64,000 bases of DNA from Escherichia coli. GTDB lineage: Bacteria > Pseudomonadota > Gammaproteobacteria > Enterobacterales > Enterobacteriaceae. The position numbers were made by a program, and so were the translations under genes. Within the stretch, counting starts at the first letter, position 1, and each line of letters starts with the position of its first letter. A model generated the notes under the pieces. The model ran no database searches, was not told the origin of the DNA, and was given only the letters and a program-made list of their open reading frames with translations. The stretch is taken from assembly GCF_003334785.1 (NCBI RefSeq), contig NZ_QOWV01000010.1. One strand, 5' to 3'. Below, piece after piece: positions 13,812 through 19,493 of the stretch.

Positions 13812-14171
13812 ATGAGCAAACCACCTCTTTTCTTTATTGTTATCATTGGCTTAATTGTCGTCGCCGCATCGTTTCGTTTTATGCAACAGCGACGGGAAAA
13901 AGCTGATAATGATATGGCTCCGCTCCAGCAAAAGCTGGTGGTGGTGAGCAACAAGCGGGAAAAACCGATTAACGATCGCCGTTCGCGCCAGCAGGAAGTG
14001 ACTCCGGCAGGCACCAGTATACGCTATGAGGCAAGCTTCAAACCGCAAAGCGGAGGAATGGAGCAGACGTTTCGCCTCGACGCCCAGCAGTACCACGCCC
14101 TGACAGTGGGCGATAAAGGTACGCTGAGCTATAAAGGAACGCGCTTTGTCAGCTTTGTAGGCGAACAATAA
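13812..14171 (+). CDS. yhhM: Uncharacterised protein YhhM (N-terminal membrane anchor)
   Basis: 119-aa ORF, hydrophobic N-terminus; conserved position. Confidence 0.8.
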   Translation: MSKPPLFFIVIIGLIVVAASFRFMQQRREKADNDMAPLQQKLVVVSNKREKPINDRRSRQQEVTPAGTSIRYEASFKPQSGGMEQTFRLDAQQYHALTVGDKGTLSYKGTRFVSFVGEQ

Positions 14172-14173
14172 GG

Positions 14174-14443
14174 TTATTTTTTAACTTTAAATTTCTTCTG
14201 CCAGGCCAGCAGTTCAAACACGCCGAAAAGGAAAATCCGTACCTTTTCGGCGGTGGTCATCTGCGGGCCATCTTTCGGTAAAGTGGATTTCAATAGCGCC
14301 AGCTGCATACCATGCATCAGCACGGTAAAAATCAGCGCCACGTTAACGAAGATATTCAGCGGGCGTGGGAAGGGATGCACCAGGTTGAGGATTAAAAATC
14401 CCCAAACGCAGAGCATTAACAAACGACCAATATTAATCAGCAT
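14174..14443 (-). CDS. yhhL: Small membrane protein YhhL (DUF1145-like)
   Basis: Start chosen at MLINIGRLLML (89 aa); the longer 130-aa track ORF would overlap the rsmD 3' end extensively. Confidence 0.75.
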   Translation of the reverse strand: MLINIGRLLMLCVWGFLILNLVHPFPRPLNIFVNVALIFTVLMHGMQLALLKSTLPKDGPQMTTAEKVRIFLFGVFELLAWQKKFKVKK

Positions 14444-15029
14444 CACTTTCTCCTTGTGCTTCGCGTTGATACAGCCGATAAGCCACCTGACCCGCCACTT
14501 TTTCCCGATGTAATGACCAGTTTGCTGGAACAGTGGGCAGACCGTTTTCGACTTCGCTTTCGACATAAATCAGGGCTTCGTCAGCCAGCCAGCCGTTATC
14601 TTCCAGTAAATTTATCGTCTCTTCTAACAAGCCACGGCGGAACGGTGGATCGACAAACACGATATTATGCGGTGTACCTTTTTGCGCCAGGAATGACATC
14701 GCGTTGCTGTTCACCACGCGTGCATTGCCTGCTTTTAGTGTCGCCAGATTCTTAATTAACTGCTGAGAAACCGCGCGATCCATCTCAATCAACGTTGCCC
14801 CCGCAGCGTAGCGCGATAACGCTTCCAGCCCCAGCGCGCCGCTCCCGGCGAAGCAATCCAGACATTGGGCGTCAACAATGACCGGAGCCAGCCAGTTAAA
14901 CAACGTTTCGCGTACGCGGTCGGTGGTGGGGCGCAGACCTGGGCTATCAGGAACCGGGAGTTTACGGCCTCGCCACTGCCCGCCAATAATGCGGATTTGG
15001 CCGCTGCCGGAATGATTCGGTTTTTTCAT
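14433..15029 (-). CDS. rsmD: 16S rRNA m2G966 methyltransferase RsmD
   Basis: 198 aa; SAM-binding DCFAGSGALGLEA motif; divergent from ftsY. Confidence 0.9.
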   Translation of the reverse strand: MKKPNHSGSGQIRIIGGQWRGRKLPVPDSPGLRPTTDRVRETLFNWLAPVIVDAQCLDCFAGSGALGLEALSRYAAGATLIEMDRAVSQQLIKNLATLKAGNARVVNSNAMSFLAQKGTPHNIVFVDPPFRRGLLEETINLLEDNGWLADEALIYVESEVENGLPTVPANWSLHREKVAGQVAYRLYQREAQGESDAD

Positions 15030-15178
15030 GATAAATTGCTCAATCCGCCAGATAACACATACTTGCAGGCGGTGATGTGAATTAAGTTAAGTGATAGACT
15101 ATTTCATCATTTTTTTAGCTGCTATGTACATAGCGTTAACGCTGTGCCATGAAGCAACAGCGAGGAGTGTAGTCGCAA

Positions 15179-16672
15179 ATGGCGAAAGAAAAAAAACGTG
15201 GCTTTTTTTCCTGGCTGGGCTTTGGTCAAAAAGAGCAGACCCCGGAAAAAGAGACAGAAGTTCAGAATGAACAACCGGTTGTAGAAGAAATCGTTCAGGC
15301 GCAAGAGCCTGTGAAGGCCTCTGAACAAGCCGTTGAAGAGCAGCCGCAAGCGCATACTGAAGCCGAGGCGGAAACTTTTGCTGCCGACGTTGTGGAAGTC
15401 ACTGAACAGGTTGCTGAAAGTGAAAAAGCGCAGCCTGAAGCGGAAGTCGTTGCACAGCCGGAACCGGTCGTAGAAGAAACGCCGGAGCCAGTGGCTATCG
15501 AACGTGAAGAGCTGCCGTTGCCGGAAGACGTCAACGCCGAAGCGGTTTCGCCAGAAGAGTGGCAGGCTGAAGCGGAAACCGTAGAGATTGTCGAAGCGGC
15601 GGAAGAAGAAGCGGCTAAAGAAGAAATTACCGACGAAGAGCTGGAAACGGCGCTGGCTGCCGAAGCGGCAGAAGAGGCGGTGATGGTGGTTCCTCCGGCA
15701 GAAGAAGAGCAGCCGGTGGAAGAAATCGCTCAGGAGCAGGAAAAACCGACCAAAGAAGGTTTTTTCGCGCGCCTGAAACGCAGCCTGTTAAAAACCAAAG
15801 AAAATCTCGGTTCCGGATTTATCAGCCTGTTCCGCGGTAAAAAAATCGACGATGATCTGTTTGAGGAGCTGGAAGAGCAGCTTTTGATCGCCGATGTGGG
15901 TGTGGAAACCACACGTAAAATTATCACCAATCTGACGGAAGGCGCATCCCGCAAGCAGCTTCGTGACGCCGAGGCGCTCTATGGCCAGCTGAAAGAAGAG
16001 ATGGGCGAGATTCTGGCGAAAGTCGATGAGCCGCTGAATGTTGAAGGCAAAGCGCCGTTTGTGATCCTGATGGTGGGCGTCAACGGTGTGGGTAAAACCA
16101 CGACGATTGGTAAGCTGGCGCGTCAGTTTGAGCAGCAGGGTAAATCGGTGATGCTGGCGGCGGGTGATACTTTCCGTGCAGCTGCGGTTGAACAGCTTCA
16201 GGTCTGGGGTCAGCGCAACAATATTCCGGTGATTGCCCAGCATACCGGGGCGGATTCCGCCTCTGTTATCTTCGACGCCATTCAGGCAGCTAAAGCGCGT
16301 AATATCGACGTCCTGATTGCCGATACAGCCGGACGCCTGCAGAACAAATCGCACCTGATGGAAGAGTTGAAGAAAATCGTCCGCGTGATGAAGAAACTCG
16401 ACGTTGAAGCGCCGCATGAAGTTATGCTGACTATTGATGCCAGCACCGGGCAGAACGCGGTAAGCCAGGCCAAACTGTTCCATGAAGCCGTTGGCTTAAC
16501 CGGCATCACGCTAACGAAACTGGACGGCACGGCGAAAGGCGGGGTAATTTTCTCGGTGGCTGACCAGTTTGGTATCCCTATCCGCTACATTGGTGTCGGC
16601 GAACGTATTGAGGATTTGCGTCCGTTTAAGGCGGACGACTTTATAGAGGCACTTTTTGCCCGAGAGGATTAA
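15179..16672 (+). CDS. ftsY: Signal recognition particle receptor FtsY
   Basis: 497 aa; strongly acidic E/A-rich N-terminal domain; C-terminal SRP-GTPase domain (GVNGVGKTTT, DTAGR). Confidence 0.95.
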   Translation: MAKEKKRGFFSWLGFGQKEQTPEKETEVQNEQPVVEEIVQAQEPVKASEQAVEEQPQAHTEAEAETFAADVVEVTEQVAESEKAQPEAEVVAQPEPVVEETPEPVAIEREELPLPEDVNAEAVSPEEWQAEAETVEIVEAAEEEAAKEEITDEELETALAAEAAEEAVMVVPPAEEEQPVEEIAQEQEKPTKEGFFARLKRSLLKTKENLGSGFISLFRGKKIDDDLFEELEEQLLIADVGVETTRKIITNLTEGASRKQLRDAEALYGQLKEEMGEILAKVDEPLNVEGKAPFVILMVGVNGVGKTTTIGKLARQFEQQGKSVMLAAGDTFRAAAVEQLQVWGQRNNIPVIAQHTGADSASVIFDAIQAAKARNIDVLIADTAGRLQNKSHLMEELKKIVRVMKKLDVEAPHEVMLTIDASTGQNAVSQAKLFHEAVGLTGITLTKLDGTAKGGVIFSVADQFGIPIRYIGVGERIEDLRPFKADDFIEALFARED

Positions 16673-16674
16673 CA

Positions 16675-17343
16675 ATGATTCGCTTTGAACATGTCAGCAA
16701 GGCTTATCTCGGTGGGAGACAGGCGCTGCAGGGCGTTACGTTCCATATGCAGCCGGGTGAGATGGCGTTTCTGACCGGTCATTCCGGCGCAGGGAAAAGT
16801 ACCCTCCTGAAGCTGATCTGTGGGATTGAGCGGCCCAGCGCCGGGAAAATCTGGTTTAGCGGCCATGACATCACGCGTCTGAAAAACCGTGAAGTTCCGT
16901 TTCTGCGCCGCCAGATTGGCATGATTTTCCAGGATCACCATCTACTGATGGACCGTACTGTCTACGATAACGTGGCGATCCCGCTGATTATCGCCGGTGC
17001 CAGCGGTGACGATATTCGTCGCCGGGTGTCGGCGGCGCTGGATAAAGTCGGGCTACTGGACAAAGCGAAGAACTTCCCTATTCAGCTTTCGGGCGGTGAA
17101 CAACAGCGTGTTGGCATTGCCCGCGCGGTGGTGAACAAGCCCGCGGTACTGCTGGCGGACGAACCGACTGGTAACCTGGACGACGCGCTGTCGGAAGGCA
17201 TTTTACGTCTGTTTGAAGAGTTTAACCGCGTTGGGGTAACCGTATTGATGGCAACGCACGACATCAACCTGATCTCGCGGCGTTCCTATCGCATGCTCAC
17301 CCTGAGCGATGGTCACTTGCATGGAGGCGTGGGCCATGAATAA
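16675..17343 (+). CDS. ftsE: Cell-division ABC ATPase FtsE
   Basis: 222 aa; Walker [10 protein letters not shown], signature LSGGEQQRV. Confidence 0.95.
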
Positions 17344-18394
17344 GCGCGATGCAATCAATCATATTCGGCAGTTTGGCGGGCGTCTTGATCGCTTCCGTAA
17401 ATCGGTCGGCGGCTCAGGCGACGGCGGTCGTAACGCACCAAAACGCGCGAAATCCTCGCCAAAACCGGTAAATCGCAAAACCAACGTTTTCAACGAACAG
17501 GTGCGCTATGCCTTCCACGGCGCATTGCAGGATCTGAAAAGCAAACCGTTCGCCACGTTTTTAACGGTGATGGTTATCGCCATTTCTCTGACGCTGCCCA
17601 GCGTCTGTTATATGGTGTACAAAAACGTTAACCAGGCGGCGACGCAGTATTATCCGTCACCGCAAATCACTGTTTATCTGCAAAAAACGCTGGACGATGA
17701 CGCTGCTGCGGGCGTGGTGGCACAGTTGCAGGCCGAGCAAGGCGTGGAGAAAGTGAACTATCTTTCTCGTGAAGACGCACTGGGTGAGTTCCGTAACTGG
17801 TCTGGTTTTGGTGGTGCGCTGGATATGCTGGAAGAAAACCCGCTTCCGGCAGTGGCGGTGGTGATCCCGAAACTCGATTTCCAGGGGACGGAATCACTGA
17901 ATACGCTGCGTGATCGTATCACGCAGATTAACGGCATTGACGAAGTGCGGATGGATGACAGCTGGTTTGCCCGTCTGGCGGCGTTGACCGGGCTGGTCGG
18001 GCGCGTTTCGGCGATGATCGGCGTGTTGATGGTGGCGGCCGTGTTCCTCGTCATCGGTAACAGTGTGCGTCTGAGTATCTTTGCTCGCCGTGACTCCATT
18101 AACGTACAGAAACTGATTGGTGCGACAGATGGATTCATCCTGCGCCCGTTCCTGTATGGTGGCGCACTGCTGGGATTTTCTGGCGCATTGTTGTCATTAA
18201 TTTTGTCAGAAATTCTGGTGCTGCGATTGTCATCGGCGGTTGCGGAAGTGGCACAGGTTTTCGGAACGAAGTTTGATATCAATGGCTTATCATTCGATGA
18301 ATGCCTGCTATTGCTGCTGGTATGCTCGATGATTGGCTGGGTGGCAGCGTGGCTTGCCACGGTACAACATTTACGCCACTTTACGCCTGAATAA
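17336..18394 (+). CDS. ftsX: Cell-division ABC permease-like protein FtsX
   Basis: Start chosen at [10 protein letters not shown] (352 aa) giving an 8-nt overlap with the ftsE stop; the track ORF begins 9 codons upstream. Confidence 0.9.
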
Positions 18395-18411
18395 TAAAAG
18401 CGTGTTATACT

Positions 18412-18447
18412 CTTTCCCTGCAATGGGTTCCGTAGCAGGGAAAGAGA
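18412..18447 (+). terminator. Inverted repeat CTTTCCCTGC-N13-GCAGGGAAAG downstream of ftsX, upstream of rpoH
   Basis: 10-bp perfect arms read directly; lies inside the rpoH regulatory region so it could be a terminator or a regulatory hairpin. Confidence 0.4.
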
Positions 18448-18638
18448 CCCCGTTGTCTCTTCCCGGTATTTCATCTCTATGTCACATTTTGTGCGTAATT
18501 TATTCACAAGCTTGCATTGAACTTGTGGATAAAATCACGGTCTGATAAAACAGTGAATGATAACCTCGTTGCTCTTAAGCTCTGGCACAGTTGTTGCTAC
18601 CACTGAAGCGCCAGAAGATATCGATTGAGAGGATTTGA

Positions 18639-19493
18639 ATGACTGACAAAATGCAAAGTTTAGCTTTAGCCCCAGTTGGCAACCTGGATTCCTACATCCG
18701 GGCAGCTAACGCGTGGCCGATGTTGTCGGCTGACGAGGAGCGGGCGCTGGCTGAAAAGCTGCATTACCATGGCGATCTGGAAGCAGCTAAAACGCTGATC
18801 CTGTCTCACCTGCGGTTTGTTGTTCATATTGCTCGTAATTATGCGGGCTATGGCCTGCCACAGGCGGATTTGATTCAGGAAGGTAACATCGGCCTGATGA
18901 AAGCAGTGCGCCGTTTCAACCCGGAAGTGGGTGTGCGCCTGGTCTCCTTCGCCGTTCACTGGATCAAAGCAGAGATCCACGAATACGTTCTGCGTAACTG
19001 GCGTATCGTCAAAGTTGCGACCACCAAAGCGCAGCGCAAACTGTTCTTCAACCTGCGTAAAACCAAGCAGCGTCTGGGCTGGTTTAACCAGGATGAAGTC
19101 GAAATGGTGGCCCGTGAACTGGGCGTAACCAGCAAAGACGTACGTGAGATGGAATCACGTATGGCGGCACAGGACATGACCTTTGACCTGTCTTCCGACG
19201 ACGATTCCGACAGCCAGCCGATGGCTCCGGTGCTCTATCTGCAGGATAAATCATCTAACTTTGCCGACGGCATTGAAGATGATAACTGGGAAGAGCAGGC
19301 GGCAAACCGTCTGACCGACGCGATGCAGGGTCTGGACGAACGCAGCCAGGACATCATCCGTGCGCGCTGGCTGGACGAAGACAACAAGTCCACGTTGCAG
19401 GAACTGGCTGACCGTTACGGCGTTTCCGCTGAGCGTGTACGCCAGCTGGAAAAGAACGCGATGAAAAAATTGCGTGCTGCCATTGAAGCGTAA
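18639..19493 (+). CDS. rpoH: RNA polymerase sigma-32 heat-shock factor
   Basis: 284 aa; sigma-70 family regions 2 and 4; RpoH-box-like [15 protein letters not shown]. Confidence 0.96.

Follow-up and report, generated by a model that had tools for sequence, protein, structure and literature searches.

In the stretch of Escherichia coli DNA analyzed here (64,000 nucleotides, hereafter the window), the first 194 codons of ftsY, which encodes the receptor of the signal recognition particle (SRP), most probably specify the A domain of this protein, namely a basic lipid-binding motif (residues 1–14) and a disordered acidic linker of about 180 residues (15–194), after which an amphipathic helix follows (195–207), with the linker tolerating insertions and deletions (indels) under relaxed selection. 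We put the probability of this reading at roughly 0.93. The domain itself, its acidity, disorder and dispensability, as well as its role as a membrane/translocon tether, are already established for this exact protein. The catalog of length alleles that we compiled over 5,426 complete E. coli genomes, including a circulating natural 40-residue deletion, is only mildly new material; a non-exhaustive literature search returned nothing specific on ftsY indels within the species.

Position 15179 of the window is the ATG of a 497-codon open reading frame (ORF), and the interval highlighted by the initial annotation (15179–15760) corresponds exactly to codons 1–194, with position 15760 closing codon 194, one residue ahead of the FFARLK amphipathic helix. 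The ORF was recognized by the NCBIfam equivalog TIGR00064 (signal recognition particle-docking protein FtsY) with 385 bits (cutoff 260.7) and coverage of profile positions 1–279 out of 279, as well as by the Pfam families SRP54_N (PF02881, residues 210–275, E 1.7e-14) and SRP54 GTPase (PF00448, residues 293–493, E 1.2e-79), and two PDB chains of E. coli FtsY, 5gad_l and 2yhs_A, share all 497 of its residues (100% identity). Upstream lies the divergent rsmD, while an ftsE-like ORF (16675–17343), an ftsX-like ORF ending at 18394 and an rpoH-like ORF follow downstream; the same ftsY-ftsE-ftsX order with rsmD is annotated in RefSeq genomes. Judged by the TIGR00064 match, the SRP54-type NG domain, the PDB identity and the ftsYEX context, all of which agree, the ORF is ftsY. 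Residues 1–194 taken alone matched none of the NCBIfam families and gave no Pfam match below E 0.001, and their sole PDB matches were the two full-length E. coli FtsY chains. The corresponding 582 nt of DNA are 100% identical in K-12 strains, and one copy of this region was present in each of the 5,426 complete genomes.

That approximately 190 residues are dominated by E, A, V, Q and P, as initially annotated, was borne out by the composition of residues 1–194 (E 28.4%, A 15.5%, V 11.9%, Q 8.2% and P 8.2%), where these five amino acids account for 72% of all positions compared to 33% in the remainder of FtsY. The Shannon entropy is 3.35 bits in this part and 3.96 bits in the remaining protein, glutamate and aspartate together make up 30%, and the net charge is −46 versus −4 for the rest of FtsY. 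As a background for the charge we used 840 windows of 194 residues drawn from the 38 remaining ORFs with a length of 250 residues or more in the window, which averaged −1.6 ± 6.7 and never fell below −20. Likewise, finding at least 55 glutamates among 194 residues at a background frequency of 5.2% has a binomial probability of 3e-25. Thus, both the acidity and the glutamate content of residues 1–194 far exceed what chance would give. These values agree with those reported for the E. coli FtsY A domain (pI 4.08, Glu about 25%; PMC5094494), and the equation of the acidic, low-complexity N-terminus with this domain matches the published domain (PMC2928010, PMC4602035, PMC5094494). The charged A domain was also given as the explanation for why the 56-kDa FtsY runs at about 100 kDa on SDS-PAGE (PMC3128533).

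The description as acidic holds for residues 15–194, but not for the first 14 residues, which carry a positive net charge (Table 1). These residues lie inside the annotated interval without being acidic, and the helix at 195–207, with a charge of +5, begins immediately past it. Both the basic N-terminal motif and the junction helix are present here and conserved across genera, and the protein sequence, the DNA and the tripartite layout are the same as in the FtsY A domain of E. coli K-12 (which spans residue 1 to approximately 197), without any difference. By NMR, lipids were found to be bound by Gly8–Lys18 and the center of the A domain was found to be disordered, in a protein identical to the one studied here (PMC5094494), and the junction helix was described as lipid-binding and essential (PMC2928010, PMC3128533). 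The disorder of the acidic center is consistent with its low complexity, with the absence of an NCBIfam or significant Pfam match and with its tolerance of indels. Functionally, both ends of the A domain bind lipid, while its negatively charged center binds SecYEG electrostatically, in a non-specific and salt-sensitive manner and with the same Kd as full-length FtsY (0.18 uM), and contains a transient helix at Asp152–Ala161; it was proposed that the domain acts as a flexible tether allowing the NG domain to look for SRP bound to ribosomes (PMC5094494). Cross-links to SecY map to residues 143–176, and the A domain is non-essential and missing from many bacterial homologs (PMC4602035). FtsY-NG+1, in which the A domain is reduced to Phe196, keeps lipid activation and most of the targeting activity, with the remaining A domain modulating the effect about twofold (PMC2928010).

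Table 1. Features of ftsY in the window (nucleotide positions) and length alleles of FtsY in E. coli (protein length in aa).
Feature	Position or length	Strand	Basis or occurrence
ftsY coding sequence, 497 aa + stop, SRP receptor, K-12-type allele	15179–16672	+	ORF, TIGR00064, Pfam, PDB identity
Basic N-terminal lipid-binding motif MAKEKKRGFFSWLG, aa 1–14, charge +3	15179–15220	+	charge; conserved in other genera (P0122, P0123)
Acidic low-complexity core, aa 15–194	15221–15760	+	composition, no family match, dN/dS, unalignable between genera
Direct repeat D10, copy 1 GCAGCCTGAAGCGGAAGTCGT	15430–15450	+	132 nt from copy 2
24-nt unit CAGCCTGAAGCGGAAGTCGTTGCA (QPEAEVVA, 15431–15454), then degenerate copy (QPEPVVEE, 15455–15478)	15431–15478	+	unit gains in other strains
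Direct repeat D16, copy 1 CGCCAGAAGAG, left boundary of natural 40-aa deletion	15549–15559	+	
Direct repeat D10, copy 2 GCAGGCTGAAGCGGAAACCGT	15562–15582	+	paired with copy 1
Higher-scoring tandem-repeat call, 15-nt period x 2.2 (GAAGCGGCGAAAGAA), codes EAAEEEAAKEE	15593–15625	+	Tandem Repeats Finder
Codon T157 (ACG), K-12 type 3 nt shorter; GCA CAG (Ala-Gln) in most strains	15647–15649	+	alignments
Codons AAE160–162 GCTGCCGAA, first of two imperfect 9-nt units (GCNGCNGAA x 2), lost in 495-aa allele	15656–15664	+	
Direct repeat D16, copy 2 CGGCAGAAGAG, right boundary of natural 40-aa deletion	15666–15676	+	
Codons AEEE174–177 (GCA GAA GAA GAG), one Glu codon lost with A174V in second 497-aa allele	15698–15709	+	
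Amphipathic membrane-targeting helix FFARLKRSLLKTK, aa 195–207, charge +5, A/N junction	15761–15799	+	charge; cross-genus conservation
K-12-type allele, ...ELE-T-ALAAE...	497 aa		841 of 5,426 complete genomes
AQ junction, ...ELEAQALAAE... (498-aa type)	498 aa		at least 3,532 of 5,426 complete genomes
AQ + A174V + one Glu of EEE175–177 lost	497 aa		852 of 5,426 matched, about 850 after likely false matches
AQ + loss of AAE160–162	495 aa		140 of 5,426 complete genomes
One extra QPEAEVVA unit	506 aa		20 of 5,426 complete genomes
40-aa deletion	458 aa		2 of 5,426 complete genomes (PSJ-07, ET734; Ecuador and China; one protein accession)

The initial annotation had also called this N-terminus repeat-rich, with imperfect repeats. 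Both strings that it quoted are there (EAEAETF at residues 61–67 and EAEVVAQPEPVVEET at residues 87–101), and many short direct DNA repeats exist; an array of repeats, however, is not what we found. The best ungapped self-match of residues 15–194 scores 73, a value reached by 124 of 300 residue shuffles (71.5 ± 10.5), and the repeated 8- to 12-mers in the DNA of the acidic region lie inside the range of codon shuffles, without any excess. Tandem Repeats Finder reported only two arrays in the region, the one listed in Table 1 and a 10-nt unit x 1.9. A true repeat architecture was rejected, given that shuffling of residues and codons reproduces the self-similarity and that the Tandem Repeats Finder arrays are marginal; the repeats are not stronger than composition predicts, as those of a tandem-repeat protein domain would be. 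What was called repeats is compositional low complexity and not a repeat array. At the DNA level, the acidic core contains 37 repeated 8-mers and 18 repeated 9-mers versus 2 and 0, respectively, in NG DNA of equal length, and 17 families of direct repeats were counted in the A-domain DNA, a wealth of short repeats that follows from the narrow codon vocabulary. Since the repeats are no stronger than the composition gives, repeat-driven instability in this region would be a by-product of low complexity rather than the property of a dedicated structure.

The same annotation had predicted, from the repeat-rich N-terminus, that its length varies between strains, and aligning the ftsY N-termini of different strains, the check it had proposed, did reveal indels, yielding at least nine length alleles of 458 to 542 residues. 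Intact forms of 458, 495, 497 (of two independent kinds), 498, 499, 506, 514 and 542 residues are known, and among 40 rows sampled systematically from the 5,426 genomes the matched lengths were 582, 585, 576 and 465 nt. We counted the alleles in these genomes using junction-specific megablast queries of 43–50 nt with flanks shorter than 28 nt, such that the matching allele alone seeds. The count for the AQ junction includes derived alleles that keep this junction, and it is a lower bound because 1,053 genomes match neither the K-12 nor the AQ query, among them at least one lineage (L013) in which an L155P SNP close by disrupts the 28-nt seed. Among the 852 matches to the A174V junction, three have an identity of 90–95%, and the H90 example, gapped over 53 nt, is probably without the deletion. 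The 506-residue FtsY with one additional 24-nt unit was seen in strain 1190 (L011), whereas the longest forms came from a metagenome contig (L010, ERZ28636837; 514 residues, two extra 24-nt units) and a draft genome (L009, GCA_904810135.1; 542 residues, a 132-nt or 44-codon tandem duplication), two kinds of assembly in which errors in repeat length are possible.

The 120 E. coli/Shigella protein variants from the database have lengths of 495, 497, 498, 499, 502, 514 and 542 residues, and all internal indels in these variants and in 11 fetched intact alleles fall between K-12 residues 86 and 175. Apart from these, the 120 variants showed a C-terminal extension of five residues as a singleton. 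No indels were seen in the first 85 residues of FtsY in our sample, and the NG GTPase domain had none either, with no gap column in any DNA alignment. A length difference of 1 nt in the NG part, present in many BLAST rows (913 vs 912 nt), was discarded as an alignment-edge artifact that arises where the query begins (TTTTTC / TTTCTTC). Strain NCTC86 (L004) is short by one T in a T7 run and by another in a T6 run, and its gene is annotated as frameshifted, probably as the result of an error.

The large indels begin and end in short direct repeats that are already visible in K-12. The 120-nt deletion of PSJ-07 and ET734 joins ...GTTTCGC to CAGAAGAGGCG..., with the crossover inside the 8-nt repeat CAGAAGAG of family D16, the two copies of which lie 117 nt apart in K-12 (15549 and 15666). 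At the junction of the 132-nt duplication in the draft genome, the two D10 copies, which have the sequence CTGAAGCGGAA in common, are fused into a hybrid. The alleles longer by 8 and 16 residues consist of added copies of the 24-nt unit at 15431–15454, the 9-nt loss corresponds to one of two GCNGCNGAA units being gone, and the 3-nt loss lies within GAA GAA GAG. Such junctions are as would be expected if replication had slipped, or unequal exchange had taken place, between short direct repeats.

To compare selection on the two parts of the protein, we calculated dN/dS for the 66 pairs of 12 E. coli alleles, separately for residues 15–194 and 195–497. The ratio was 0.22 for the acidic core and 0.016 for the NG part, while dS was equal (0.065 in both). 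Substitution patterns therefore indicate that the acidic core is under strongly relaxed yet still purifying selection; with a dN/dS of 0.22, that is, below 1, its sequence is not free to drift. Across the alleles the A domain spans 155–239 residues and its net charge −32 to −61, while the acidic fraction is steady at 0.28–0.31.

A comparable layout is found in FtsY proteins of other bacteria, many of which begin with basic and aromatic residues (e.g. MGLFSFFKKK or MAKKGFFSWLG), continue with an acidic segment and reach a KxGFFxRLK junction, as in E. coli. Among 133 complete-looking FtsY cluster representatives, the extension ahead of the NG domain measures between 2 and 942 residues (median 176), and short FtsYs start right at the junction helix (e.g. 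MEEKKKGFFARLK). In an alignment across genera the K-x-GFF-x-RLK junction lines up, as does the N-terminal motif, with G194, F196, R198, L203, K205 and T206 being invariant, whereas the acidic middle is unalignable. Some of the extensions differ from that of E. coli in consisting of genuine tandem repeats (in P0123, for example, (AEAKAAEEARLA)n), and other FtsYs have, in place of the acidic linker, an N-terminus that is hydrophobic and transmembrane-like, together with a domain of about 350 residues that is not acidic. The eukaryotic SR-alpha likewise has an N-terminal membrane-localizing part upstream of a homologous NG domain (PMC2928010); its folded X domain dimerizes with the integral membrane protein SR-beta, whereas FtsY relies on lipid-binding helices and a disordered acidic tether. 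Residues 1–194 showed no detectable sequence relationship to the SR-alpha X domain in NCBIfam or, below E 0.001, in Pfam.

Length differences in a repeat-like, GAA-rich region could be artifacts of sequencing or assembly, and the single-nucleotide losses of NCTC86 in its T7 and T6 runs are clearly artifact-like, while a metagenome scaffold and a draft assembly are the sources of the 514- and 542-residue alleles. Nevertheless, artifacts are a very improbable explanation overall, as all variants but NCTC86 are in frame (multiples of 3) with intact ORFs, each of the common alleles is shared by between 140 and more than 3,500 complete genomes that were sequenced independently, the identical junction of the 40-residue deletion is found in two complete genomes from different countries, the junction of the +8 allele occurs in 20 complete genomes, and the repeats involved (8–24 nt) are much shorter than reads. 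The chance is smaller still, and indeed next to nil, that the odd composition is explained by some further element concealed in this stretch, be it an antisense gene, a small RNA or an internal regulatory element. Antisense ORFs do overlap here, one of 77 aa (15122–15355) and one of 79 aa (15295–15534), both on the − strand, but their richness in Leu/Phe/Arg or Ser/Thr/Cys mirrors the GAA- and GCN-rich codons of the sense strand, and the indels together with a dS equal to that of NG (0.065) speak against any extra constraint on the DNA. A search of positions 14000–19000 on both strands yielded no Rfam family at gathering score.

The indels might, alternatively, be adaptive, with lineages tuning the FtsY tether in length or charge, or else the SecY-contacting segment (residues 143–176), and thereby altering co-translational targeting, which we regard as highly unlikely. 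The indels at residues 86–175 overlap the segment cross-linked to SecY (PMC4602035) and the transient helix 152–161 (PMC5094494) while the first 85 residues have none, several alleles occur at high frequency, and the net charge spreads from −32 to −61. Most events, however, alter only one to three residues and leave the net charge at −45 to −48, the breakpoints at all eight variant loci examined in DNA sit in short repeats, as mutational bias predicts, cells can do without the A domain in vivo and its center binds SecY non-specifically (PMC4602035, PMC5094494), the dN/dS of 0.22 gives no hint of positive selection, and the allele frequencies probably mirror phylogroups. We therefore see only a slim chance that the cluster of indels at residues 86–175 reflects lineage-specific tuning of the FtsY–SecY tether as opposed to neutral slippage. 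Among these indels is the circulating 40-residue deletion, which takes out the transient helix 152–161 and about two thirds of the SecY-cross-linked peptide 143–176. If such tuning did occur, natural alleles (the 40-residue deletion and the gains of 8, 16 and 44 residues) would differ measurably in translocon affinity or in the efficiency of co-translational targeting.

Altogether, an indel-tolerant A-domain linker under relaxed selection is the reading that we favor. In published experiments on this very protein, the basic ends of the A domain bind anionic phospholipids, and the NG GTPase domain, thereby held near the translocon, would be able to capture ribosome-bound SRP. The function of the linker would rest on its bulk charge and flexibility rather than on its exact sequence, with which the tolerated indels, the raised dN/dS and the preserved acidity are in line; if bulk charge and flexibility suffice, purifying selection on the linker would be relaxed but not absent. 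Slippage or unequal recombination between short direct repeats could then give rise to in-frame insertions and deletions which, being tolerated, are retained among strains as length alleles. Annotation and variant-calling pipelines should consequently not flag in-frame length differences in codons 86–175 of ftsY as errors, while homopolymer frameshifts there, as in NCTC86, are probably errors. The natural alleles of 458 and 542 residues, finally, are ready test cases for how the length and charge of the tether matter in SRP targeting.

Two isolates taken far apart, PSJ-07 from human faeces in Ecuador and ET734 from sediment in China, carry an identical 458-aa FtsY (WP_155555796.1), which lacks residues 126–164 of the K-12 protein. 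That the same shortened protein occurs in such distant isolates shows that much of the acidic linker is dispensable in nature, the transient helix 152–161 (PMC5094494) included. In the NG domains, an alignment of the K-12-type protein encoded in the window with four other E. coli alleles revealed only two amino-acid differences, namely Q270 and A292 in the K-12-type protein and L270 and T292 in the other four.

Searching 5,426 complete E. coli genomes for ftsY returned 5,430 places, so that a few of these genomes contain two copies of the gene, through either duplication or misassembly. In strain NCTC86 (NZ_LT601384.1) the annotation lists ftsY as a pseudogene with a frameshift, and the assembly is missing one T from each of two homopolymeric T runs (see the table). 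Given that ftsY is an essential gene, this frameshift is most likely a sequencing error.

Features of ftsY and its acidic region in the window
Feature	FtsY residues	Window coordinates	Strand	Remark
N-terminal membrane-binding motif, RGFFSWLG	7–14	15197–15220		
Junction membrane-binding motif, EGFFARLK	193–200	15755–15778		
T7 run		15203–15209		encodes the Phe-Phe pair of the N-terminal lipid-binding motif
T6 run		15760–15765		encodes the Phe-Phe pair of the second lipid-binding motif
Codon 270	270	15986–15988		
Codon 292	292	16052–16054		
Antisense ORF, 77 aa		15122–15355	-	overlaps the acidic region
Antisense ORF, 79 aa		15295–15534	-	overlaps the acidic region

Nothing suggests that the two antisense ORFs are genes, since the synonymous divergence of the acidic region that they overlap equals that of NG. 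Their predicted products, rich in Leu/Phe/Arg or in Ser/Thr/Cys, are what GAA- and GCN-rich codons yield when read as their reverse complement.

Among FtsY homologues, P0136, P0156, P0163, P0133 and about 12 further cluster representatives have a non-acidic N-terminal extension (335–375 aa, with 4–8% E+D) whose first segment is hydrophobic and resembles a signal or transmembrane sequence; compared with the acidic A domain, this extension represents another route to the membrane. The 552-aa homologue P0123 has an A domain built of true tandem repeats, (AEAKAAEEARLA)n, whereas that of E. coli FtsY is merely of low complexity.

Both membrane-binding motifs of E. coli FtsY have a basic-x-GFF core in common, and short homologues, such as P0241, start directly at MEEKKKGFFARLK. 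On these two grounds, the N-terminal motif appears to be a duplicate of the junction helix, the acidic linker having grown between the two.
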